From positions 1 to 64,000 of the IMG/VR virus record IMGVR_UViG_3300030012_002528: 64,000 nt of DNA. The stretch is one strand, 5' to 3'. Shown here one piece after another: positions 1 through 55,702 of this stretch. The stretch comes from a virus. Within the stretch, counting starts at the first letter, position 1, and the number at the start of each line of letters is the position of its first letter. A program made the position numbers and the translations under genes. The notes below the pieces were generated by a model. The model was not told the origin of the DNA. It was given only the letters and a program-made list of their open reading frames with translations, and did not search any database.

Positions 1-3000
1 TCGTACATAAGTCCTTTAGCTACAATAGATTTATTTATCTTAATGTCTCCTCTAAATATTTCGTAGTGCGTTATAGAGTTTCTAAAGTCTTGAGTAATTA
101 AATCATTTGTCACCGCCACATCCAAAAATGCTTTAACAACCTCGTTGTCAATATGAAAACCTATAGGGAATATTTTTGTCTCAGTAAAAGGAATTGGCTG
201 AGAAAACAATCCATCATCAGTACCGAAAGTAGGAGATACTGCAAAATCAGGAAACTTAAAGTGTCTAATCGGTTTGCACTTGAAGTTAGCATTAGAGCTT
301 AAGTTATAATAAGGCGTACCTGACATGTAAGTACCAGTAGTGAATGTGTTTCTGAACTCTGTTTGAATACTTGCAGGTATCAGGTTAGAGTCTACCAATA
401 ATGCAGTACCATCGTCTTTAGTGGTGCTGTTGTATAGGTATTCGTTATTCGGGTACTGGTCTGTGGACTCCCAATAAGAAAAGGCTCCCTCTGTTCTTAC
501 AAAAGGGTCGCACTGTATATTTTCATAAGTTTTAAGAGGGCAGCTTGATGTGAAAAAACAACTTTTCTCAAATGATATAGAAGTGTTTGCAACAAATGCT
601 TCTATTTCTTCAATAACTTGGCCCTGAGTTTTAACATTAAAGCAATATGTGGGAGAGGCATAAATATATTTAAATTGGCCTCCATCATTAACGTGAGGAT
701 TACCCCCAAGTCCTTTTCCTCTAAATTCAGACTTCTTTTGATTACCGTCATGTTTTACCCTTACGAGAGGACTGTCTACAGCTATGTATATTGTGTTGCC
801 GTTAAATGGGGACGACAGTCTATCTCTTGCTGCCTTTATATCTAACTCAACTACTCCGTGGATACTTGTATTTATCTCTATTAAGGCAGAATTAAAATCG
901 TCTTCTCCTCCACAATGGTCTAAATCGGTAAAAGGTACTGAACCAGAACCTAAACTTTCAAAGAAAGATACTCTTACTTTTTCAGTATACCACAAGCAGT
1001 CTCTTTTGGACTTTTGTTTGTCTGCCTCTGATGCTTTCGACAAAGAGAAGTATACTTTATCTTTGTTTGTAACATCTATCTTGTACCACATAGCATTAGT
1101 ATGGACTCTTCCCCTAGACCCATAAATAGGGCTTGGAGCAAATCCAACTGTAGTATCATTTATGAATATACCTTTGTAGTCTATGTCATTTTCCTTTACA
1201 CATTGTAGTTTTTTGATTCTTCCCCCTGGCTGTTCAGGTGTGGCTGGAAAAGAACTAGCAAGATAGTTTCTTTCTAGTAATTGAACGGCTTGGTCTAGAT
1301 ACAAGTCGTTATCAGCCATAGGTATTACATCAGTGTCAACGTCATATACTATGTCGGGAAATTCTGGAATAATATAAGTAGAAAAGGCACTATCGTACTC
1401 ATCAAAGTCTACTGGCAAGGTCGTAGCATTTAAAGGCTCTATGCCTCCACTAATAGGAGTTTGTCTTTCAAAAACAAGGTCAAACCTGTCCTTTTTTCCT
1501 CTTTGACCTACAAAGAATTCATATAAAGATAACTTGTCTCCACTATCAAACTCTATCTCTCCTTTCGCATTGATACTCTTAAAGTCTCCTCCGTCATCTA
1601 GTGTAAATGGGAAACAGAAATCAGACATTCCTACTCTATCGTAGTAATCGCAGTCATAATACTTAACATTGACACAAGGGTCTTCGTTTGCAGAAATAGC
1701 TTCAATGACAGTATTAGTCAAACTAGCCTCCCCACAATCATCAGGAAAACCTGGGTCGCAGCAAGGGTATTCTCCTGCAAATAAACCTGTACCCTGATAA
1801 TTATCAAATATAAACCTTTGTGCTAAATTAACTTGGTTAGCTGTAGAGGCAGGGTCAGTGACAATGTCTTTAAATACATCTTGATTTTGTTGAACGTACT
1901 CTTCAAAGTTTAGATAACGTTGATTACCATTCACACAGTCGTCTCCTTCTCCAAAAGAAGGAAGCTCCGCACCTTCTTGAAAAGTTAAGATGAGTGGAGT
2001 TATAGAAGGAATAGCAGGGTCTACTTTTGTTTCTTCTATCTTAGAACATACTTTACTTACATCTCTTTGTATGACAATAGGTTCTAAATCAGTACACCCA
2101 TCGATGATTCCTCCCTGTTGATATGCTGTATTATAATACTGCCATTTAAATATTCTTTCTACGTCAGCGCAATTCTCGTTACCGTATTTTAAAACAGAGT
2201 ATACATCTCTAGCCCATGCTCCTGTAGCAGTCACATCTCCATAGGTGGCTGAAGACTTTATTTGTTGTATAACTGAATTAGTACCATCTGTAGGGCTGTA
2301 TCCTGCTTGATGTGTTGAGTCAAAGAAGTTATCTGCATCCGTGGCTATTCTAGATATTAAAGGGTATACTGGGGTTACATACCCATTGGTTGTAAGAAAT
2401 CGAATACCAAAAGGTACCACCTCGTCTCTCATATACCCTCTAAAATTAGAACTACCAAAAGACTTTTCATACAAGTCTTCATTAGCTATAACAGTTCTCC
2501 ATTTTGCAAACTGACCCATGAAGTTTACCACAGGCTGAAGGTTGGGGTCAGGTCTTGCTTCAAGGTCCCCGAACAATAAAGTGTTGTTAGTAGCCGTTAC
2601 TAACTTAGCTTTAAGGTAATCAGGAAACGCTCTAACTATTTCTGCTGAAGATATTCTGTCTTCGTTTCGATTTACAGACCCACTATATACTACCTCGCTC
2701 TGAGAAGTAGGAAACACTCCCACCGAGTAATAAGACTTAGTTCCGTCCACAGAAGTCGTCTCGACCACTGCTACTTTGTAATGCTCAAAATCAGGATTGA
2801 GGTTTTCAATATTAAGTTTAATGGAAAAATTAGTAAGAGCATCTAATGATGGCTGCTCATAGACTAATCGATTAGGGTCATTAATAGATACGGTGTTAGT
2901 TGCTGAGAGATACCGAGTCATCATATTGCCATTGATGTCTGAGTACCCCACAAAGAATGCGTACTGCCCGTGTCTTAAATTACCTCCTATTACCGTGCCA

Positions 3001-3740
3001 TCTACATTTATACATAAAGGCTCATGCTTAGGTAAAACGTTTAACCTGTCACAATTTATACATACTGGTTTATCTACTGACCCACAATCACAATCAGGGT
3101 CATAGTCTGGACTAGAAGGGTCATCGCTACAGAACTCTGTTTCTACATAATACTGGTCTAAGAAATCAATTTCTAGTCTTCTTCTAGGATTAAGGTCATC
3201 CGTAAAATAAAGTATCTTGTTTCCCTTATCGTCTTTCAATACTGAAGATATTGGGTAATTGATATTGAAGTTAAGACAGTTTGATGCCGCTGCTCCATTA
3301 GGACAATTGTAGTCACTTATAAGAGTTACATATTGACATGTTGCAGCCTGTGCTATATTCTCAAGACCATCTGCTAGTACAGCCTCTACGCTGCACCCAC
3401 ACTTACGAAGAGAGTCCGTAAATGATTGCTGGTTCTCTAGTTCTGATATATAACCTATTTCCGACTGACCTGTTGAGGGATTAGTCAAAAAGAAATAAGT
3501 CCTGTCTGCTGTGATGTCTTTTTGGAAGCCAATGACTTTGAACCCTGTCTTAAATTTAGAACAAAGGATGTTACTCTCCTCATTCTGTAAATTAATAAGG
3601 TCTCCATCTTGCCCTTCATAATTAGCATTGAGGGCGTGGACGTAGCTTTTTTCATCTAGAGAAGTAGGATGATTATCTTTATTCATCCCTATCTTAGAGA
3701 CAGCTACCTGTCTATCGATGTTGTTCCGCTGTCTAGCCAT
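1..3740 (-). CDS. crAss-like tail stabilisation (muzzle) protein, 3'-truncated by window edge
   Basis: Not in the ORF track. ATG at 3740 overlaps the upstream stop (TAATG) and reads MARQRNNIDRQVAVSKIGMNKDNHPTSLDEKSYVHALNAN; no other long ORF occupies 1-3740. The GMNKD start and position after ring/IHF genes fit crAss tail stabilisation proteins. Confidence 0.7.
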   Translation of the reverse strand, partial: MARQRNNIDRQVAVSKIGMNKDNHPTSLDEKSYVHALNANYEGQDGDLINLQNEESNILCSKFKTGFKVIGFQKDITADRTYFFLTNPSTGQSEIGYISELENQQSFTDSLRKCGCSVEAVLADGLENIAQAATCQYVTLISDYNCPNGAAASNCLNFNINYPISSVLKDDKGNKILYFTDDLNPRRRLEIDFLDQYYVETEFCSDDPSSPDYDPDCDCGSVDKPVCINCDRLNVLPKHEPLCINVDGTVIGGNLRHGQYAFFVGYSDINGNMMTRYLSATNTVSINDPNRLVYEQPSLDALTNFSIKLNIENLNPDFEHYKVAVVETTSVDGTKSYYSVGVFPTSQSEVVYSGSVNRNEDRISSAEIVRAFPDYLKAKLVTATNNTLLFGDLEARPDPNLQPVVNFMGQFAKWRTVIANEDLYEKSFGSSNFRGYMRDEVVPFGIRFLTTNGYVTPVYPLISRIATDADNFFDSTHQAGYSPTDGTNSVIQQIKSSATYGDVTATGAWARDVYSVLKYGNENCADVERIFKWQYYNTAYQQGGIIDGCTDLEPIVIQRDVSKVCSKIEETKVDPAIPSITPLILTFQEGAELPSFGEGDDCVNGNQRYLNFEEYVQQNQDVFKDIVTDPASTANQVNLAQRFIFDNYQGTGLFAGEYPCCDPGFPDDCGEASLTNTVIEAISANEDPCVNVKYYDCDYYDRVGMSDFCFPFTLDDGGDFKSINAKGEIEFDSGDKLSLYEFFVGQRGKKDRFDLVFERQTPISGGIEPLNATTLPVDFDEYDSAFSTYIIPEFPDIVYDVDTDVIPMADNDLYLDQAVQLLERNYLASSFPATPEQPGGRIKKLQCVKENDIDYKGIFINDTTVGFAPSPIYGSRGRVHTNAMWYKIDVTNKDKVYFSLSKASEADKQKSKRDCLWYTEKVRVSFFESLGSGSVPFTDLDHCGGEDDFNSALIEINTSIHGVVELDIKAARDRLSSPFNGNTIYIAVDSPLVRVKHDGNQKKSEFRGKGLGGNPHVNDGGQFKYIYASPTYCFNVKTQGQVIEEIEAFVANTSISFEKSCFFTSSCPLKTYENIQCDPFVRTEGAFSYWESTDQYPNNEYLYNSTTKDDGTALLVDSNLIPASIQTEFRNTFTTGTYMSGTPYYNLSSNANFKCKPIRHFKFPDFAVSPTFGTDDGLFSQPIPFTETKIFPIGFHIDNEVVKAFLDVAVTNDLITQDFRNSITHYEIFRGDIKINKSIVAKGLMY

Positions 3741-37169: not shown

Positions 37170-37487
37170 ATGGCTACGAACAGTAAGAAATACAACAAGA
37201 AGAACTACAAAAAGTACTGGGGAACTAAGAAGGCCGTTTCTGAACGCTCGGAACGCAACAAGGCCAGACGTATTCTTACAAAGGAAGGCCGTATCAAGAA
37301 AGGAGATGGCAAAGAAGTAGACCATAAGAAGCCCATATCAAAAGGAGGGACTAACTCTAAGAAGAATTTATCAGTCACTACACGCAAAGCTAACAGACGA
37401 AGAGGTGCTGCTATTGCCAACGCAAATAAAAAGAAGAAGACTGGTACTACTAAGAGAAAATCCTCTACTAAAAAGACTAAAAAATAA
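37170..37487 (+). CDS. basic HNH-like protein
   Basis: VDHKKPISKGGTN...NL.......NR. Confidence 0.65.
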   Translation: MATNSKKYNKKNYKKYWGTKKAVSERSERNKARRILTKEGRIKKGDGKEVDHKKPISKGGTNSKKNLSVTTRKANRRRGAAIANANKKKKTGTTKRKSSTKKTKK

Positions 37488-37657: not shown

Positions 37658-37784
37658 CGTGTAGGTTTTTGTGTGGGGGTGGGGGGTGTGTGGAGAGGTA
37701 GGTTTGTGGTGTGTGGTGGTGTGGGGGTGGTGGGGGTGTAGGTATGTTGTTGTTGGTAGTGTTGTTTCTTTGTTTGTGTGGTGG
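37658..37784 (+). repeat. G/T-only low-complexity tract (G-quadruplex potential)
   Basis: About 125 nt almost free of C and A, with four runs of 5-6 G. Confidence 0.8.
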
Positions 37785-37854
37785 CTCGCTGGCGTGCGCT
37801 CGTCTTTTCTTATATATATAAGTTATATTTATTATAATAATAATGTCCTTTTAA

Positions 37855-38616: not shown

Positions 38617-38703
38617 AAGCCTCGCCTTCTGGGTGGGGCTTTTTTTTTGCCTCATCACGGGCAAGCCGTGATAAAGAATTGAGGCGAGCGAGCGAGAAAA
38701 AAA
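38617..38703 (+). repeat. cassette boundary element 1 (terminator, hairpin, GTGATAAAGA, A-run)
   Basis: Core at 38668-38677; ATCACGG/CCGTGAT hairpin. Confidence 0.8.
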
Positions 38704-38761
38704 TGACATAAAAAATTAGGATATGTAAGAAAAATTTTGTATACGTGTGCGTGAGCATTTC

Positions 38762-38880
38762 TTAACAAATTTTAACGAAATTTATTTGCATAGTTTAAAA
38801 TGCCGTCAGAAGCCCATAGAGACGTTTTAAGAGCATTTGGTGTGGTTTTGGATCCATCACACACGAGACTCTGAGTTTTG
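38762..38880 (+). repeat. long direct repeat, copy A
   Basis: Ungapped match to 43695-43813. Confidence 0.8.
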
Positions 38881-39093
38881 CCCTTAGATGCAATTGTTAA
38901 TAACTTTTTCAATTAAATTTGGATAGGTCAATTATTTTTCGTATACGCGCATACGTGTGCATTAGTGTAATGGGTGTTAAAATGCGTTAACATTCCTTAA
39001 CACTTTTTTTATACATAGGATTTGTTTTATCCAAATTGTTTTACTATATTCGTAGAAGAGATGGAGGGGTGGCTTTAACTTAAAAACTGTAAT

Positions 39094-39480
39094 ATGACAG
39101 CGAACGAACGAATACTGACTTGTATCAGTAAAGACTTTCCCGAAGCAATAGTGCAAAGGGCAAAGGAATTGGGTACGACTCTTGTTGACTTTAAAATGGG
39201 GGTTTTTGATGCGGAAACTAATTGCTTGATGGCAACCTTTGACAAGGTCGATGTGGACGATGATTCGATAGTGGTGCAAACGGCTATGACCTTGCAACTG
39301 ATGGAGCACGTAGGCTTTAGAATACAAACGGCTGAGGAGTCGAACTTGACTCTAAAACATCCAACCTTAGTTTTCTTCTTATGCTTTCCACCACAAAAGT
39401 TGATAGACCATGTGCGTGTAGAACTTGACCTTGATGACATACTCAGCAAGGCAATGGATGGAGACGATGACGATGAGTAA
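39094..39480 (+). CDS. hypothetical protein
   Basis: 128 aa with its own promoter at 39021-39052. Confidence 0.65.
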   Translation: MTANERILTCISKDFPEAIVQRAKELGTTLVDFKMGVFDAETNCLMATFDKVDVDDDSIVVQTAMTLQLMEHVGFRIQTAEESNLTLKHPTLVFFLCFPPQKLIDHVRVELDLDDILSKAMDGDDDDE

Positions 39481-39547
39481 AATTGATGGGGTATGGGGCT
39501 ACCTTAACGGTAGCCCCTTTTATAAAAAAATTAAAAATAAAAAACAG

Positions 39548-39691
39548 ATGAAAAAGTTAGTGTATATTGTTATTGGGTTTATTATTGTAGGCATGGTTTC
39601 TACATCATGTAGTAGAATTAACAGTTGTAAAGGACATCCTGGAATAACGCAGGATTTCGAGAACACCCAACCTAAAGGAGAACATTCTTAA
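39548..39691 (+). CDS. small lipoprotein (47 aa)
   Basis: MKK, hydrophobic stretch, then VSTSC lipobox-like signal. Confidence 0.55.
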   Translation: MKKLVYIVIGFIIVGMVSTSCSRINSCKGHPGITQDFENTQPKGEHS

Positions 39692-39712
39692 AATACGGTT
39701 TTTTTGTTCAAT

Positions 39713-39796
39713 GCCTCACCATATGGTGGGGCTTTTTTTTTGCCTAATCACGGCTTTGCCGTGATAAAGAATGCGCCCGAAAAACACGAAAAAAAA
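39713..39796 (+). repeat. cassette boundary element 2
   Basis: Terminator, ATCACGGC-TTT-GCCGTGAT hairpin, core at 39761-39770. Confidence 0.8.
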
Positions 39797-39969
39797 GTTA
39801 TCAACATTGTGTGGATAACTTTATTTGTTTATGTAAATTATTTTTTGTATTCGCGTATACGCATATTTAGATGTTAATTTTTTTTAACATTCGTTAACAC
39901 GTTTTTTGTTGCTTTTAATTTGGATAAAAGGAATTTATTACTATCTTTGTTGAAGTAAAACGAAACATT

Positions 39970-40680
39970 ATGGCAATAAATAATTATAATTTTAGGACAG
40001 GTAACATAGTACATTCTTTAGATGTTAAACATTCGGCAAATTCGAAAATAGGGAAAGGTATAGTATTGCAAACGTATCATTACAGTATTGAACAGGTAGA
40101 AAATAATGATTTTACCTTGGATGCATTTAACTGTATGGACTGTCCATATAGTTTTAATCAAAACAATGGTAAAAGTGGTAAATGCTATACTCATAAAGGT
40201 ATGCAGTTAATGGGGTTATTATCTAAACTTGAAAGCCTACACAAACAAAATTTGCAAGGTAAGATAAAAGAATTTAATTCAGATAATTTTAGAAAGTTTA
40301 TTTCCCATAAATCAATCAAGACAGTTGACCTTATCCGATTCGGTGCCTATGGCGAAGCGGTTACACTACCTTTAGAAGTTAGGGATACATTATTCGATGT
40401 TAAAAATATTCTAAAGTGCAAAGTTACGTCATATACGCATCAATGGAGAACGGCAAACGAAACCCGTTTCATGGCTTCTACGCATAACCTTGCCGAAATG
40501 CTACAAGCGAAAAGACTAGGTTACCGATGCTTTACCGTAACTTCTGAAGCAATAGAAGATGCTTTTAATTGTCCTGCTTCTAAAGAAAGCGAACGTAAAA
40601 AGACCTGTGTACAATGTGGTCTATGCGATGGTCAAGTTAGCGGCAAACGTAAAAAGGATATCTATATCCTTAAGCACTAA
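39970..40680 (+). CDS. Cys-cluster protein, Gp88/radical-SAM-like
   Basis: CMDCP...CY, IRFGAYGE, YTHQW, FMAS, CP...TCVQCGLC. Confidence 0.55.
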   Translation: MAINNYNFRTGNIVHSLDVKHSANSKIGKGIVLQTYHYSIEQVENNDFTLDAFNCMDCPYSFNQNNGKSGKCYTHKGMQLMGLLSKLESLHKQNLQGKIKEFNSDNFRKFISHKSIKTVDLIRFGAYGEAVTLPLEVRDTLFDVKNILKCKVTSYTHQWRTANETRFMASTHNLAEMLQAKRLGYRCFTVTSEAIEDAFNCPASKESERKKTCVQCGLCDGQVSGKRKKDIYILKH

Positions 40681-40745
40681 AAAATAGGGCAATTAATTTT
40701 GCCCTTTCAATTCTTTTTATTAACTTCAATTTAAATTAAAAAACA

Positions 40746-40940
40746 ATGGGATACAAAACAATATTTTATTACGAAACCTACGATGGCATAAGACATCATT
40801 TCCTAACACGATTTTGCTACCGTCCAAGTGCAACATTGGCTTGGAAACAATTAAAGAAAATGCTTAGTGAGAAGAAAGATAATATTCTCTGTATAGGTTA
40901 TGATATAGGAGATGAAAATATTATTGAAATTAAATCATGA
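40746..40940 (+). CDS. hypothetical protein
   Basis: 64 aa ORF. Confidence 0.5.
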   Translation: MGYKTIFYYETYDGIRHHFLTRFCYRPSATLAWKQLKKMLSEKKDNILCIGYDIGDENIIEIKS

Positions 40941-41074
40941 ATATATCAGTTAAACTAAACTATAACGGAAGTATAACTTTATTTGCAGTAGTGCAAGGAC
41001 AGTTAATAAGTAAAGAATATTCTTGTGGAGTAGGTAAAGCGAAAAAACTTTTTCAAGAAAAATTTGGAAATTAG
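40937..41074 (+). CDS. small hypothetical protein (45 aa)
   Basis: Manual translation MNISVKLNYNGSITLFAVVQGQL...; ATGA overlap. Confidence 0.5.
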   Translation: MNISVKLNYNGSITLFAVVQGQLISKEYSCGVGKAKKLFQEKFGN

Positions 41075-41110
41075 AAAAACATTTTGTAACTTAGAGGAAA
41101 CAATGAAACA

Positions 41111-41314
41111 ATGAAAAAAGAAATTTATAAAATAGGAACACTACTAAAAGAGACTAAACTATCAAATGCTCAATTAACGAAAGTTATACAGACAAGTATG
41201 GATGACTTAATCCAAGCAGGAGATACAGAAGACGAAGCCCTAGATAGACTATCCAAGATAATGAATATATCAGGAGTCAAAGTAAGGAAAGCATACCTAG
41301 GGAATTTGAAATAA
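41111..41314 (+). CDS. small helical protein (possible HTH)
   Basis: 67 aa, LSKIMNISGVKVRKAY. Confidence 0.5.
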   Translation: MKKEIYKIGTLLKETKLSNAQLTKVIQTSMDDLIQAGDTEDEALDRLSKIMNISGVKVRKAYLGNLK

Positions 41315-41334
41315 TTTGTTTCGTTGTTCATTTG

Positions 41335-41454
41335 AGCCTTGCTCTCACTAGACCGAGATGCTTTAGATTAGCACGGGGTCTACCGAGGGTAAGGCTTTTT
41401 TTTTGCCACGATAAATCGTGATAAAGAAGTGAGGCAAATAAAAAATAAAAAAAA
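41335..41454 (+). repeat. cassette boundary element 3 with extended hairpin
   Basis: 62-nt hairpin, T-run, CACGAT-AA-ATCGTG, core at 41418-41427. Confidence 0.8.
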
Positions 41455-41593
41455 CAGGCGTAAAAACAAAGATACGACTTTTTTTTAAATTATCCAAATT
41501 TTTCTTGCGAAAGTTACCAACATATTGTCGCTGAGAATGTTGATAAGTTTTATTTGGATTTTAAATTTATTTGTTTTATATTAGAGGAAACAA

Positions 41594-41947
41594 ATGAGAT
41601 ATATTATGCAATTAAACACTATTGAAGACTTGAGACATCACGGAGACTTGGCTCTCTTATTACTTAAGATAAGAATGACCTTAACCTATAAGAAGGTAGA
41701 AGGATTCATTGTACACGCTGACGAGGATAAGATAAGTTTTATTCCCGAAGGAGAGTACCATCCAACTCTTTGTAAAAAAGAACTTGCACCCAGTGGTTAC
41801 GAATGGGACGAGGGGAGAGATGTTCTTGAAATTTGTGTAAACTGCGAAGAGAACTACGAAGGATGCGAGCCCACCTTACCATACAATAAACTTGCGGAGG
41901 TATTATGTGGAGGCAAGTTTTACGGAGACGTTGCTTTCGGTAAGTAA
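41594..41947 (+). CDS. hypothetical protein
   Basis: 117 aa with its own promoter and terminator. Confidence 0.6.
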   Translation: MRYIMQLNTIEDLRHHGDLALLLLKIRMTLTYKKVEGFIVHADEDKISFIPEGEYHPTLCKKELAPSGYEWDEGRDVLEICVNCEENYEGCEPTLPYNKLAEVLCGGKFYGDVAFGK

Positions 41948-41977
41948 CGCACACTGGTAGCACTGTTTTCGGTTAGA

Positions 41978-42066
41978 GTCCTCACCCAATGGGTGGGGAT
42001 TTTTTTTAACTTTTTTTTTGAAATTTTTTTTGTGATAAAGAGTGTGCGCCCGAGGTGAAAAAAAAA
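41978..42066 (+). repeat. cassette boundary element 4
   Basis: Terminator, T-runs, core at 42032-42041, A-run. Confidence 0.75.
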
Positions 42067-42245
42067 GAGTCCTCCACAAAGATACAACTTTTTTTCGATA
42101 TATCCAAATTATTTTAGATAAATTTTTTTAACGTTTATTAACAGCGTGGTAATAAATTAAGTTTGGTATTTCCATTTATTTTAACTAACTTTGAGAGGTC
42201 AACGACCTCGAACGGGGTTGCTTTTTTTAACCTTAAATGTAAACA

Positions 42246-42497
42246 ATGAAACATTTAGCATTAAGTGAGATGAATGGAAATACTTTCTATTCAAATTCGT
42301 TAGGAATGACTCTTAGCGTAAAAGACAACAAAGTCTTTGATTACAAAGGTATTGAGATGCCTATTGATGACTTGCAAGTAGACACCTTGTACGTTGAATT
42401 TCTTGACCAACCAAAGTTTCAAGAACAAAGGTACAAAGAGTATCTTGCAAAGGTAAAAGAAATGGGCAACTATTCGCCTCTATTGTTTAACTCTTAA
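42246..42497 (+). CDS. hypothetical protein
   Basis: 83 aa, promoter at 42162-42193. Confidence 0.6.
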   Translation: MKHLALSEMNGNTFYSNSLGMTLSVKDNKVFDYKGIEMPIDDLQVDTLYVEFLDQPKFQEQRYKEYLAKVKEMGNYSPLLFNS

Positions 42498-42508
42498 ATT
42501 GTTTTCAA

Positions 42509-42772
42509 ATGGAAAATGCTTTAAACCCAAATGTCACTGGCATTTACATCTTGGAAGGTAGACCTACCCTTCCCTACCGTTACTATCTCAAGAAGATAGA
42601 TTCTACTCATTTTCAAATGGCATACGTTGCTGATGGCGAGGATGCTTCGATTGTGAATGATGCTTTTTGTTACCATATTGGCGAGCATCGTCAGAGACCT
42701 TACTATGCTGACGTTAGGTCTTGGCTAAAAGGAGGCGAAGCCCCAACTGACAAGACCTACACTTGGGAATAG
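42509..42772 (+). CDS. hypothetical protein
   Basis: 87 aa ORF. Confidence 0.6.
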   Translation: MENALNPNVTGIYILEGRPTLPYRYYLKKIDSTHFQMAYVADGEDASIVNDAFCYHIGEHRQRPYYADVRSWLKGGEAPTDKTYTWE

Positions 42773-42775
42773 GCT

Positions 42776-42885
42776 CACGTGCCCACCGAGAGGTGGGTAT
42801 CGTGATAAAGAGTGTGCGAGAAAAGACCGAAAAAAAAAGCAATGGGAGGGCGAGAAAAGAAAAAAATCAAAAATGTCTTTATCAC
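42776..42885 (+). repeat. cassette boundary element 5 plus inverted core
   Basis: Core at 42802-42811; reverse-complement copy at 42876-42885. Confidence 0.8.
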
Positions 42886-43062
42886 AAATTCAAGACTCCT
42901 CCACTAAGATACAAAATACTTTTCAATAATCCAAACACTTTAACATTTTTTTTAATTTAATTTTAACACTCGTTAACTTGTTTTTAACACCCTTTAACAT
43001 TTTGGCTATTGCATATGTCCTTACAATGTACTACTTTTGTCTTAAACAAATTATTTAAATTT

Positions 43063-43224
43063 ATGAAAGCAGTAATCCGTAATATCAAGACAGGTAAGTA
43101 TCGCGTAGCCCCTGTGTACGCACGTTATAAAAAAGACCGCGTTGAGGTCATACGCGCGTTGGAGCAGTCGCTACCCGCCCACGAGCGGGTGGTGGAGGTG
43201 CATCTGAACGAAAGGGGCAAGTAG
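43063..43224 (+). CDS. small hypothetical protein (53 aa)
   Basis: ATG at 43063 after a TACTTTTG promoter box; GC-richer codons. Confidence 0.55.
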   Translation: MKAVIRNIKTGKYRVAPVYARYKKDRVEVIRALEQSLPAHERVVEVHLNERGK

Positions 43225-43230
43225 CCCCAA

Positions 43231-43288
43231 GCCCACCGAAAGGTGGGCATCGTGATAAAGAATGTGCGTGAGCAAAAAAAAAAAAAAA
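43231..43288 (+). repeat. cassette boundary element 6
   Basis: GCCCACC-GAAA-GGTGGGC, core at 43252-43261, A15. Confidence 0.8.
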
Positions 43289-43694
43289 TTATCCCATACT
43301 AAGTTACGATTTTTTTTTGATATATCCAAATAAAGTTATCAACACGATGTGGGTAAGTTGTAGGTGTTAAATTATGTTATATATTAGGTTATATCAGATA
43401 AATTAACTATATGGGGGTGTCGGCATTTCGGCAAAGTTATTTTACCTACAATAGTTAACATACTTTAACTATATATATTATTATATATAACATATATATA
43501 CTATAGAGCCATATAACGGCATATTCCTTTTCCTTTTAGATAAATTAACGTGTTGCGTTAACACTTTTTAACGCAGAATACTTGCGTATGTGCAAGTTGT
43601 GACAGGTAGAGTCTTCTCACACTCGGTTTTTTGGGTTTGGAAAATAGTGGTAAAATGTGTAACTTAGTGGGTTATTATAAGCATACTTTTGCAA

Positions 43695-43813
43695 TTAACG
43701 ATTTTTAACACAATATATTTGGATAATTTAAAATCCCTTGAGAGGCTCATATTTGCGTTTTAAGGGCATTTGAGGTTCTTTTGGAACAACCACACACGAA
43801 GGTCTGAGTTTTG
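43695..43813 (+). repeat. long direct repeat, copy B
   Basis: Ungapped match to 38762-38880. Confidence 0.8.
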
Positions 43814-44068
43814 AGCATACAGACGATTTGACCTATGATTAGGACATATGGTGTTGGTAAGTTGTTAGTAACTATATATATGTATATTTGGATATGTCAT
43901 ATATTCTTATATACGTGTGCGTGTATTCCTATTGTAGGTAAATTTCTTAGCCGAAATTTTTTTAACATCTGTTAACACGTAGATTGATAATTTAATTAGA
44001 ATAATTCAAAATGAATCACTATATTTACATCAGCGATGGAGGGGATGCCTAATACTAAATAATACATT

Positions 44069-46398: not shown

Positions 46399-46542
46399 AT
46401 GAAAGAAATTAAATATCAAGGGATGGAAATTGGAATCTATTACTACATAGATGAAAAAACTAATCAAAAGGTTTACGATGTAGAGTACATCAGAGAAGAA
46501 TTCGAAAGTAAACTTGAGGAACTTTTAAATGAGGACAAATGA
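46399..46542 (+). CDS. small hypothetical protein (47 aa)
   Basis: Manual translation MKEIKYQGMEIGIYYYIDEKTNQKVYDVE... Confidence 0.5.
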   Translation: MKEIKYQGMEIGIYYYIDEKTNQKVYDVEYIREEFESKLEELLNEDK

Positions 46543-46880
46543 AAGAGAACAAGTTAATAGCAGAGTTTGAGCAGTTACCTACAGAGGTATTCAAGCCAAA
46601 TGATATTTTGAACTATTACCACAATGGTGCTTGGTATGAGGAACACGAACTATCTTATGAAATATCTTGGGATTGGTTGATGCCTGTAGTGGAGAAGATA
46701 AACTTATTAGACGATTATAGATACACTTTCCTTATTGCTTCAATGGATACTCAAATTGTAGACAACATCACGAATGATGTGATTGTAGAGGTCAGTTGCA
46801 AACACTCTGTTGACGAGTTAATTAAAAGTGTGTACGAAGCAGTCGTAGAATTTATTAAACAATTAAATAAGGAATCATGA
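46539..46880 (+). CDS. WDWLMPV-family paralog 1
   Basis: ENKLIAEF / SWDWLMPVVEKI / YEAVVEFI. Confidence 0.75.
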   Translation: MKENKLIAEFEQLPTEVFKPNDILNYYHNGAWYEEHELSYEISWDWLMPVVEKINLLDDYRYTFLIASMDTQIVDNITNDVIVEVSCKHSVDELIKSVYEAVVEFIKQLNKES

Positions 46881-47272
46881 AAGAGAATAAGTTAATAGCA
46901 GAATTTATGGGTGCGAAACCCATTGTACTTGGTAACTCAACCGAATATGAAATGTATGGGATTGTCGAATGCATCAATGATGGTGTAGATGAAAAGCATT
47001 TTTTTATTGATGATGAAATGGAATACCACACATCTTGGGATTGGTTGATGCCCGTAGTGGAGAGGATTAGGGGACTTGAAGAAGGTATGTTAGTAGAGAG
47101 GATAGACATTATGCCAAACGATGGAGTAGCAATTCATTATTCGCACCCACCTAAGATGATTGTAGTAGACACATCAAAACGTGTAAATACTTTAAATGCT
47201 ACCTACGATGCAGTCGTGAAGTTTATTGAAGAATATAATAAAGTAAAAAGAAATGAGTTACAAGGTCTTTGA
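46877..47272 (+). CDS. WDWLMPV-family paralog 2
   Basis: Same three blocks. Confidence 0.75.
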   Translation: MKENKLIAEFMGAKPIVLGNSTEYEMYGIVECINDGVDEKHFFIDDEMEYHTSWDWLMPVVERIRGLEEGMLVERIDIMPNDGVAIHYSHPPKMIVVDTSKRVNTLNATYDAVVKFIEEYNKVKRNELQGL

Positions 47273-49260: not shown

Positions 49261-49444
49261 GGTATTGATGGACAACTTTGGATTGGAGTGGAAGACTAGC
49301 AAAGGAGAGATAACCTATGGCGATTGGGCATACAATTGGGATAGTGGCGATGTGGTAGGTGTAGATGAAGATGATGATTTATATCTAAGAAATGAAACTT
49401 GCACAAAGGTAGTTCCGTTTGATGAAGCAAATGATTGGTTTTAA
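49253..49444 (+). CDS. hypothetical protein
   Basis: 63 aa ORF. Confidence 0.55.
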   Translation: MSEVLMDNFGLEWKTSKGEITYGDWAYNWDSGDVVGVDEDDDLYLRNETCTKVVPFDEANDWF

Positions 49445-49454
49445 TTAAAAAGAA

Positions 49455-49679
49455 ATGGAAGAGAATAGATTAATAGCAGAATTTATGGACGTTAATCTCA
49501 TTGAAGGTCAACGTGGAGACTACCACACCTCATGGGATTGGTTGATTCCCGTAGTGGAGAAGTGTTTTCAAGAAGAAGGTAAACACTACGTCATTAACGA
49601 TGCACTACTAACCATCAACATAGATGAAGTTCACGAAGCAGTCGTGAAATTTATTAAGGAATACAATAAGAAATCGTGA
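49455..49679 (+). CDS. WDWLMPV-family paralog 3 (minimal)
   Basis: Same blocks with the shortest linkers. Confidence 0.75.
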   Translation: MEENRLIAEFMDVNLIEGQRGDYHTSWDWLIPVVEKCFQEEGKHYVINDALLTINIDEVHEAVVKFIKEYNKKS

Positions 49680-49990
49680 AAGAAAATAAACTAATTGCAG
49701 ACTTTATGGGTGTGCAATACAAGTCAGATGAAGACTACTTTAAAGAGTTGGCAGAGATGCGAGAAGATGGTATCTTCTACGAGCAAGGATATATGGAGAG
49801 TCAACTCAACTACCACGAGTCTTGGGATTGGTTAATGCCTGTAGTAGGTAAAATAACACGAGATGAAAAGTATTGGGAGAACGAATACCGAGAGTATCTA
49901 ATGGATATTATTCCTTACGCAATCATAGAAGATGTCTACGATGCAGTAGTAGGATTTATCAAAAATTGTGTATCTTTAGAGAAAGAATAG
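49676..49990 (+). CDS. WDWLMPV-family paralog 4
   Basis: Same blocks. Confidence 0.75.
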   Translation: MKENKLIADFMGVQYKSDEDYFKELAEMREDGIFYEQGYMESQLNYHESWDWLMPVVGKITRDEKYWENEYREYLMDIIPYAIIEDVYDAVVGFIKNCVSLEKE

Positions 49991-50506: not shown

Positions 50507-50824
50507 ATGACTGATAAGTTAGTTAATTCGCTATGGGAAGCGATAGAAAGAGAAGGATATTTTAAAGAAGATGTTTTAAGTTCGTCACGTAAGCGTGAGT
50601 TTGTAGATGTTCGTGTTGCTTTATCCCAATTACTTTATTATAGATTAGGACTTACGCAGTACAAAATTGCACTAATTCTTAATCGCCATGAGCATTCTAC
50701 TATAAATCATTATGTCAATCACATGGATGAGAGAGATAATTTTGATTACAAAGAACTGACAAGGGTACTCAATAGAGTTGTAGACAAATACGAGGAACAC
50801 ATTGAAAAATTTCAGTACGCATGA
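50507..50824 (+). CDS. DnaA domain-IV-like HTH protein 1
   Basis: SSRKREFVDVR...KIA..LNRHEHSTINH. Confidence 0.7.
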   Translation: MTDKLVNSLWEAIEREGYFKEDVLSSSRKREFVDVRVALSQLLYYRLGLTQYKIALILNRHEHSTINHYVNHMDERDNFDYKELTRVLNRVVDKYEEHIEKFQYA

Positions 50825-51192
50825 AAAGTAATTTAGTTGATGAACTTTGGCAAGTCGTTGAGAATCAAGGATTTAACAAAGAAGAAATTGTAGGCAGTTC
50901 ACGTAAGCGTGACTTAGTTGATGTGCGAATAGCAATGGCTCACGTATTACATTTTAGAGTGGGAATGACTCAATCAAAGATAGCCAAGATACTTGGACTT
51001 GCAGACCACACTACTATCAATCATTATGTTAACAAATGTAAAGCACGTAATGATTATGATTATAGAATAATGATGAACGAGTTTGCAGAAGTTATTGAGA
51101 AGTATGAGGATGCTGAAATTTTAAATGAGATAAAAAAAGTTTGGAATAAGCATAAGGGAGGTATGTTAGATTTTTATCCACCAATAGACTAA
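50821..51192 (+). CDS. DnaA domain-IV-like HTH protein 2
   Basis: SSRKRDLVDVR...KIA..LG.ADHTTINH. Confidence 0.7.
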   Translation: MKSNLVDELWQVVENQGFNKEEIVGSSRKRDLVDVRIAMAHVLHFRVGMTQSKIAKILGLADHTTINHYVNKCKARNDYDYRIMMNEFAEVIEKYEDAEILNEIKKVWNKHKGGMLDFYPPID

Positions 51193-55278: not shown

Positions 55279-55702
55279 ACTGACATTTGTCTTTATCACG
55301 TTTTTTTGTTTATCAGTTTTTGGACAATTAAGCGAAGGTGTTTTTTATAAGGTAAAAAAAGTTGTAGATGGTGACACCTTTTGGTTGTACGATTCTGATT
55401 GGGATACTTATAAAGTAAGACTCATCGGTGTGAATACTCCCGAAGCCTACACATTTGAAAATGTAACAGAAGAAGTAGGAGGTAAAGAAGCATCTGCGTA
55501 CACGAGGTATTTAATAGAAGGAGAGTACGTGAGACTTGAATTTGATGTGGAAAAGTATGATAAGTATAACAGAGTTTTAGCGTATGTTTGGTTACACAAC
55601 GGAGAAATGCTAAATGCTAAACTTATAGAAAAAGGTCACGCTGAAGTGGTAAGGTATTATCCTAATGTAAAGTATTTTAATTACTTTAAGCGTTTGGAAT
55701 AA
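55265..55702 (+). CDS. thermonuclease (SNase-like) with signal peptide
   Basis: VVDGDT, VRLIGVNTPE, DKYNRVLAYV. Confidence 0.9.
   Translation: MMKIKLTFVFITFFCLSVFGQLSEGVFYKVKKVVDGDTFWLYDSDWDTYKVRLIGVNTPEAYTFENVTEEVGGKEASAYTRYLIEGEYVRLEFDVEKYDKYNRVLAYVWLHNGEMLNAKLIEKGHAEVVRYYPNVKYFNYFKRLE

Follow-up and report, generated by a model that had tools for sequence, protein, structure and literature searches.

Boundary modules in an array of small genes

The window analysed here is the first 64 kb (64,000 nt) of the 92,261-nt IMG/VR record IMGVR_UViG_3300030012_002528, referred to as G000 in comparisons. Between positions 38617 and 43288 it carries an array of small gene cassettes which are separated by copies of one ten-nucleotide word, GTGATAAAGA. 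To judge from its genes, the window belongs to an uncultured, crAss-related phage of marine origin: portal, terminase and head proteins matched crAss-type PHROGs, and the portal shared 36% identity with that of the epsilon crAss-like phage crAssE-Sib and 29% with those of the Cellulophaga phages phi17:2 and phi4:1. Structural genes are located on the - strand up to about 30 kb and are followed by a tightly packed + strand arm with genes for RecA, PhoH, exonucleases and RNR. Spacers of 240-610 nt were found mainly within 37.5-44 kb; the genome is otherwise compact. Bacteroidota-type promoters (TTTG-N17-22-TAnnTTTG) are over-represented (13 against about 4 in shuffled sequences), and because of this promoter type a marine member of the Bacteroidota is the most likely host. 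With RecA as query against the genome collection, the matches had identities of only about 46-48% and came mostly from Brevundimonas and other Alphaproteobacteria.

The decamer occurs in eight exact copies in the window, while dinucleotide shuffles contained 0.19 copies on average and two at most, and none of 100 shuffles reached eight. No copy was found outside the window in the full 92,261-nt record. Six copies on the + strand, M1 to M6, are located at 38668-43261 and thus within 4.6 kb, and one inverted copy lies among them; the positions given in an earlier, purely sequence-based reading of this DNA (the original prediction) were confirmed for all of these. The remaining copy at 55290 (- strand) lies within a coding region and may be a chance occurrence.

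All six + strand copies are part of a composite module, in which the decamer stands 0-35 nt past a GC hairpin and is followed by a stub of 12-19 nt and an A-run of 7, 8, 8, 9, 9 or 15 nt, the latter as predicted. The hairpins showed folding z-scores of -2.7 to -5.9, and the relatedness of their stems, CCyCACC...GGTGGG, could be verified. The claim that each core follows a terminator held only in part: a hairpin precedes the decamer in six of six cases, but a canonical intrinsic terminator, i.e., a GC hairpin with a T8-9 tail, was found in only four (38617, 39713, 41335 and 41975, with the units ending at 38648, 39741, 41404 and 42007). The hairpins at 42776-42804 and 43232-43247 have GNRA loops and lack the T-run of an intrinsic terminator. 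The stub, formerly described as GC-rich, is indeed present but better called purine-rich, as purines account for a fraction of about 0.7-0.9 at most positions between +1 and approximately +25 (33 non-redundant copies, with both lineages described below pooled). In predicted folds, the 5' half of the decamer (CGTG or CGTGAT) forms the 3' arm of a stem in four of the six copies, as originally stated, and AAAGA remains free throughout; for M4 and M6 no pairing is predicted. What had been taken for co-variation of these stems has to be withdrawn, since the 3' arm is the invariant motif, the complementary arm merely copies it and no compensatory change occurs.

All modules are oriented on the + strand. 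The gene pair 37986/38368 is closed by a terminator hairpin (CCTCGCC/GGGTGGGG) with T9 at 38617-38648, behind which a small hairpin, ATCACGG-N5-CCGTGAT (38654-38672), provides with its 3' arm the 5' half of M1. The core of this first boundary (38668-38703) comprises the decamer at 38668-38677, the stub at 38678-38696 and A7 at 38697-38703. Unit 1, consisting of a 128-aa open reading frame (ORF) and a small membrane ORF, ends with a terminator hairpin and T9 at 39713-39741, which is followed at 39747-39796 by the small hairpin ATCACGGC/GCCGTGAT, M2 (39761-39770), a stub and A8 (39789-39796). Unit 2 with ORFs of 236, 64, 45 and 67 aa is closed by a long terminator hairpin with T9 at 41335-41404, and the adjoining module (41407-41454) is composed of the hairpin CACGAT/ATCGTG, M3 (41418-41427), a stub and A8. 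The fourth module (41975-42066) contains a terminator hairpin, three T-runs, the unpaired M4 (42032-42041), a stub and A9. Two boundaries of a different type, termed type B, complete the array. The first (42776-42838) combines the hairpin CACG-TG-CCCACC-GAGA-GGTGGG-TAT-CGTG, which lacks a T-run, with M5 (42802-42811), a stub and A9; the inverted decamer at 42876-42885 (- strand) lies 64 nt past M5 and is the counterpart of an inverted pair in the second lineage. The second (43232-43288) consists of the hairpin CCCACC-GAAA-GGTGGG, M6 (43252-43261), a stub and A15.

The cargo genes are unrelated to one another, as had been proposed: comparison of the array ORFs with each other gave no BLASTP match at 1e-4, and almost none of them matched any family. 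A search of 30-64 kb with Rfam yielded a tRNA as the sole match. The distance from a decamer to the next gene varies between 176 and 817 nt. Neither the decamer nor its flanks matched the host-type promoter pattern TTTG-N17-22-TAnnTTTG (-33 TTTG, -7 TAnnTTTG); such promoters sit separately near each gene, where TTAAC-N5-TTAAC boxes together with a -33/-7 promoter stand ahead of the genes. The sense promoter of unit 2, TTTG-N19-TATCTTTG, is located at 39919-39949 (+ strand) behind a TTAAC-N5-TTAAC box at 39884-39898, and equivalent + strand promoters were found at 42162-42193 and 43688-43721. By this prediction each cassette is already served by its own host-type promoter, and the decamer is no part of it.

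Relatives and cassette exchange at the decamer

For the comparison with related phages, a terminase-anchored retrieval from IMG/VR was carried out, which gave 11 relatives of 85-90% identity; the five longest contigs were checked. Of these, G001 was the contig that reached the array; it ends inside it and carries two decamers. Retrieval by the proteins of flanking genes returned mostly contigs which stop short of the array, and this suggests that assemblies break there. Exact scans of IMG/VR with the extended motif found chance singletons or G001 only. A metagenome scan with hairpin arm plus decamer identified 30 loci, eight of which were chance matches in coding DNA. Marine and other environmental metagenomes supplied the remaining 22, all of them short contigs, of which 15 carry at least two decamers. 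In total 43 copies with full flanks (33 non-redundant) were collected, all exact by construction; with up to two mismatches permitted, one further boundary copy, ATGATAAAGA, and one low-complexity match were obtained, the latter being discounted as chance. The decamer is therefore unchanged in 43 of 44 full-flank copies from the 22 contigs and G001, despite diverging flanks. The element of hairpin plus decamer, 36-39 nt in length, shows 88-97% identity between lineages, while the remainder is about 70% identical or unalignable. A simple remnant of duplication was rejected as the origin of the copies, given the exact decamers in unalignable flanks.

Two lineages of modules could be distinguished. 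Besides the architecture of G000 with hairpin, decamer, purine stub and A-run, seven contigs represent a second lineage with the arrangement CACG-NN-CCCACC-GNRA-GGTGGG-NATC-decamer-N28-32-inverted decamer. Here the decamer pair forms the 10-bp base of a second hairpin (H2), and the two adjacent hairpins, H1 and H2, are conserved in 13 copies. The GC apical stem of H2 shows compensatory changes in four predicted pairs, and an A-U to U-A swap was found in H1 of three copies. Both lineages have the cargo families c0, c1, c2 and c3 in common. An explanation of the inverted pair by miniature inverted-repeat transposable elements or terminal inverted repeats was excluded, as there are no consistent target duplications. 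Mini-ORFs were rejected as well: ATG or GTG at +1/+2 past many decamers opens Lys-rich frames of 9-31 codons through the A-run, and TGA-TAA in the decamer represents an in-frame double stop, but the frame is inconstant and the second lineage has no such ORFs, which makes them a by-product of the purine tract. Cultured distant relatives offered no counterpart: phi17:2 has tightly packed genes and no comparable long-spacer array, and phi14:2 has long early spacers, yet no decamer, DnaA boxes or TTAACA boxes. In the literature, no biological use of the decamer is described.

The order and content of the cassettes differ between relatives. With M for a boundary module, G000 reads c0 c1 / M / 128aa / M / c15 c16 c25 c18 / M / c10 / M / c6 c8 / M / c9 / M / DUF932. 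In G001, L053 and L059 the order is c5 c0 c8 / M / c2 c4 / M / c7 c15 and onwards, in L045 and L043 it is c6 c3 / M / c11 c19 / M / c12 DUF932, and L041 carries c8 / M / c10 / M / c15. In pairs of contigs with common upstream cargo but a different downstream spacer, exact identity stops 0-3 nt 3' of the decamer in eight of nine cases. Conversely, where they share a spacer behind different upstream cargo, identity begins 0-1 nt before the decamer (with different hairpin types) or at the hairpin base. From these end points it follows that the hairpin travels with the upstream cassette, and stub, A-run and spacer with the downstream one, so that the decamer is the sole common word. Among the internal ends of high-scoring segment pairs, 80 of 376 fell into boundary windows against 4.7% expected, which corresponds to a 4.5-fold enrichment. 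The check proposed at the outset, a search of related genomes for cargo swaps at the core, thus turned out in favor of the prediction: the motif is present, gene order is variable and homology switches at the decamer. At the level of sequence comparison, the module is shown to be conserved across relatives and to be a preferred joint for the exchange, reordering, gain and loss of cassettes.

We consider it roughly 60% probable that the decamers are the invariant cores of composite modules of terminator-type GC hairpin, GTGATAAAGA, purine stub and A-run, which would separate self-contained ORFan cassettes in the first approximately 6 kb of an early block purged of restriction sites and serve as joints for their modular shuffling. 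The cassettes would be shuffled by short-homology or microhomology recombination, or by template switching at the hairpin. This could be done by general phage genes, of which RecA, an endonuclease VII-like and a PD-(D/E)XK ORF are encoded, and would need no dedicated integrase; selection for intact boundaries would follow recombination. The decamer itself would act as a cis-signal at the junction of stem and single strand, with CGTG(AT) paired and AAAGA free, and would probably be read by a phage-specific factor rather than by the host sigma-A holoenzyme.

Several observations weigh against this interpretation. The majority of internal homology breaks (79%) are not in the boundary windows but occur at gene starts and other shared spacer blocks, as for example at the start codon where c3 replaces c8; for this reason the decamer is a preferred but not the sole joint. 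The metagenome set was seeded with a pattern containing the decamer, so its invariance is independent only for the additional copies per contig, and the contigs are related, so that the pair counts represent non-independent events. An identity of 10-14 bp is short for a RecA-type exchange and leaves room for template switching, a site-specific enzyme or selection on illegitimate events. Finally, the conserved core contains no recognised promoter, in which it differs from a true PeSL, the shuffling element of T4-type phages discussed below.

Spacer elements and genome surroundings

The spacers draw on a common set of elements. Four promoters of the Bacteroidota type on the - strand are located 36-93 nt right of M3 to M6; all have a 20-nt spacer and point against all genes. 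Two match the consensus, TTTG-N20-TATCTTTG at 41467-41498, which runs leftward over A-run, stub and M3, and a second at 42077-42108, which faces M4. Near-consensus promoters were found at 42904-42935 (TATCTTAG) and, facing M6, at 43299-43330 (TAACTTAG). In relatives the -33/-7 boxes persist even with a different spacer sequence between them. These promoters account for the 'ATATCCAAAT' and 'AAGATAC' blocks of the spacers. At M1 and M2, both an inverted copy and an antisense promoter are missing. An inverted DnaA-box-like pair (TTATCAACA / TGTGGATAA) lies directly past the A-run of M2 (39798-39818) and a second one about 50 nt beyond that of M6 (43336-43356); the relative L043 carries three perfect TTATCCACA boxes. 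The ORF at 50821-51192 resembles DnaA domain IV, a C-terminal helix-turn-helix (34.1 bits, cut-off 31.5), and the adjoining paralogue at 50507-50824 does so more weakly; both are predicted to be likely operator-binding regulators.

A repeat of 134 nt with 75% identity was observed in two long spacers (38762-38895 and 43695-43828), behind a TTAAC-N5-TTAAC box and a -7 box; metagenome relatives carry it, too. As a candidate small non-coding RNA, it recalls the abundant intergenic RNAs reported for phi14:2. Four small paralogous genes at 46496-47241 and 49441-49845 share conserved N-termini (MKENKLIAEF...) and a WDWLMPV motif, and some of the copies are missing in L045.

The array lies at the left edge of a 23.7-kb block (37392-61069) in which AGCT occurs once (42 expected), CTAG 11 times (60 expected) and GGCC once (21 expected); across the rest of the 92-kb record the three words are found at expected counts. 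Such a purged block suggests first-exposed DNA or DNA that enters early without protection or modification. GATC and CCGG are avoided throughout the genome. Directly before the array, between it and the last conserved gene, lies a tract of about 130 nt (37660-37790) which consists almost purely of G and T in GTGTGGGGGTGGGG-type repeats; a similar G-rich patch is present in the relative G002, and the tract may serve as terminus, pac site or origin element. The last conserved gene itself, at 37170-37487, encodes a 105-aa HNH-like protein whose score of 21.1 bits lies just below the Pfam cut-off of 21.4. In G000, G001, G002 and L059 alike, it is the final conserved gene ahead of the variable array.

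Possible readers of the decamer and comparison with known systems

As regards the factor reading the decamer, a phage-specific start or loading signal and a structured protein-binding, RNA-processing or insulator element are each conceivable, neither with much confidence, and the rest falls to minor options. The first of these had already been proposed in the original prediction, by analogy with phage N4. In a more specific form, a crAss-type RNA polymerase delivered with the virion may use hairpin and decamer as early promoter or loading site, with the start in the purine stub just 3' of the decamer and shuffling as a by-product of a repeated promoter. We regard this as possible but doubtful. 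The geometry resembles the N4 P2 template oligonucleotide with a stem ending in CGTG(A), about 6-7 single-stranded nt and a purine-rich tract (PMC13492108), and as in N4 a hairpin is joined to a short, conserved single-stranded tract and a purine-rich region in a part of the genome that probably enters early. Virion RNA polymerases are reported to be encoded in epsilon crAss-like phages (PMC11054128), and gp66 of phi14:2 requires a single-stranded template. A virion polymerase would also agree with the poor fit of the decamer to the host-type promoter and with the position of the array at the head of the purged block, as expected of first-exposed DNA. Moreover, the DnaA-box-like operator pairs and antisense host promoters immediately downstream would be able to shut off such starts.

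Against it stands the failure to detect the polymerase. The large virion proteins of G000 have no DFDxD motif and no PDB or PHROG match to an RNA polymerase, tblastn was negative as well, and DFDxD is absent from G001, too. The PF00940 profile (T7-like RNA polymerase) had no match in the record, which is incomplete, although the control search also matched nothing anywhere; a sigma r2 profile gave no match either. The ORF at 3-3740 was ruled out as the polymerase, being a homologue of the 'muzzle' protein of crAssE-Sib. The giant virion proteins of 1772, 728 and 2379 aa (77261-91916 in G000, 37.6-74.8 kb in G001) are unalignable by DNA between these two phages, whose terminases are 88% identical. 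Furthermore, 176-817 nt separate the decamer from the next gene, and a host-type promoter is already in place for every cassette. The inverted pair of the second lineage, 28-32 nt apart, would give convergent promoters, and the early transcripts of phi14:2, a phage without the decamer, show no common motif. The fit to N4 itself is partial, as N4-type hairpin promoters have a stem of 5-7 bp, a 3-nt loop and -11G and start about 11 nt downstream on a single-stranded template (PMC13492108), whereas the stems here measure 5-13 bp, the loops mostly 3-5 nt, and two of six decamers are unpaired. At least six copies are present, each behind a terminator and far from genes. In summary, the geometry fits the predicted hairpin promoter, but no virion or T7-like RNA polymerase or sigma factor was detectable.

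Just as tentatively, the module may act as a nucleic-acid structure that closes the cassettes at their 3' end and is bound or cut by protein, i.e., a site of RNase III-like processing, an mRNA-stabilising site or a factor-dependent terminator or insulator. A duplex over the decamer would then arise in cis from an inverted copy or in trans from antisense RNA. The conservation of H1 and H2 in 13 copies of the second lineage, with the A-U to U-A swap in three sequences and the compensatory changes in four predicted pairs of H2, speaks for such a structure. So do the type-B hairpins, which with GNRA loops throughout and no U-tract cannot be plain intrinsic terminators, and the four antisense promoters across four decamers, which are kept in relatives. 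The distance of the decamer is fixed to the upstream hairpin and variable to the downstream gene, which points in the same direction. On the other hand, M1 and M2 have no inverted copy or antisense promoter, M4 and M6 are predicted to be unpaired, and antisense RNA pairs whatever the sequence, so that an invariant 10-nt core is not explained thereby.

Stated more broadly, the junction of stem and decamer could be the signal of a phage machine that has yet to be recognised, either the promoter or loading site of a crAss-type virion RNA polymerase or an integrase-free, hairpin-guided nuclease or recombinase which moves cassettes at the 10-bp core; this, too, we hold to be rather doubtful. With either machine, one portable 'plug' for early genes would be common to a whole pool of marine phages.

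A dedicated, hairpin-guided site-specific recombination of the attC/HUH kind, with the decamer as crossover core and an unrecognised enzyme such as the HNH-like ORF at 37170-37487, is improbable. Several features resemble those of integrons: small unrelated genes form a unidirectional array with a hairpin element at the 3' end of each cassette, all copies have one orientation, and the joints fall on a core of 10-14 bp beside the hairpin. This short conserved core is partly paired with the 5' base of the hairpin, and the lower stem formed with it, plus an asymmetric internal loop, is formally like the R''/R' pairing of attC. The HNH-like ORF also has a suitable place as last conserved gene before the array, although its match is borderline. 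PF00589 (tyrosine recombinases), which was matched by 14 of 14 control genomes, had no match in G000 or G001, which together span nearly the whole circular genome; neither had PF00239 (resolvases) nor PF01797 (Y1 HUH transposases). Since no such enzyme was found, the integron reading fails its defining test. In addition, integrons have an adjacent IntI-type recombinase and cassettes that lack a promoter and end in attC with a GTTRRRY core, whereas here the core is GTGATAAAGA, the cassettes come with promoters and terminators of their own, many joints are found at gene starts or in other spacer blocks, about a quarter of the copies have no hairpin involving the core, and the genome is that of a lytic phage. 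The predicted recombination sites were thus borne out in the sense of PeSLs, with a motif that is kept while order and content vary and homology switches at the core, but not in the sense of integron attC sites.

Least likely of all, the decamers could be polar DNA signals for staged genome entry, as also proposed originally, or boxA-like antitermination sites on the antisense strand, in both cases unrelated to recombination or sense starts: the location of the array at the edge of the purged block, beside the G/T-only tract, is all that speaks for pausing during entry, and one TARA contig and G000 read through the region. For boxA, the decamers lie just downstream of antisense promoters, and their reverse complement (Y)UCUUUAUCAC shares the CUCUUUA core of boxA, but M1 and M2 lack antisense promoters. 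The terminal-redundancy operons of SPO1 and the first-step-transfer region of T5 are host-takeover or pre-early modules which use host promoters, and staged entry of the T5 type accompanies protection of late-entering DNA. Like them, the array clusters many short early units, each equipped with strong signals, where the genome leads; those modules are not known to have an invariant extra decamer at each terminator.

The closest known parallel to the shuffling of cassettes at a boundary module are the PeSLs (promoter-early stem-loops) described by Arbiol, Comeau and Krisch. They are conserved composite regulatory elements with a stem-loop which flank ORFans in hyperplastic regions of T4-type phages, known from RB49/phi1, T4/PST and KVP40/nt-1, and act as recombination sites (PMC2839356, PMC4122927); mini-circles, detectable by inverse PCR, are set free when adjacent PeSLs recombine. 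Here as there, the ORFan cassettes of a hyperplastic region stand between short, conserved regulatory elements of composite build that contain a GC stem-loop, close relatives differ at these elements, the cassettes are transcriptionally self-contained and no dedicated recombinase is known. Stable GC hairpins stand at six of six decamers, four of them with the T8-9 tail by which they would be able to end upstream transcription, and the ORFans differ between relatives with joints at the motif. The host early (sigma-70-like) promoter within the same motif is missing: the 10-nt core 3' of the hairpin is not a promoter, and the host-type promoter follows 100-400 nt further on. Moreover, PeSLs are known from T4-like myoviruses, whereas the phage here is a crAss-related podophage of Bacteroidota. 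Identity across the joint can be as short as 10-14 bp here, two inverted cores build a second hairpin in the sister lineage, and antisense promoters and DnaA-box-like operators are found among the spacer elements. To call the array an undescribed system, as had been done, was an overstatement, since shuffling at repeated boundary signals follows a logic known from PeSLs. New is the invariant 10-nt non-promoter core in a crAss-related phage.

Shared by two lineages with a single pool of cargo, the invariant 10-nt word makes for an unusually sharp joint. As the decamer is not a host promoter, it would offer a clean and short bait for its reading factor; the promoter of crAss-type virion polymerases is still undefined. 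The array would also explain why assemblies of such phages break at this position, and it marks their fastest-exchanged small ORFan genes, which are probably genes for host takeover or anti-defence. With the boundary modules, modular shuffling of the PeSL type, described for T4-like myoviruses, would also apply to crAss-related phages of marine Bacteroidota.

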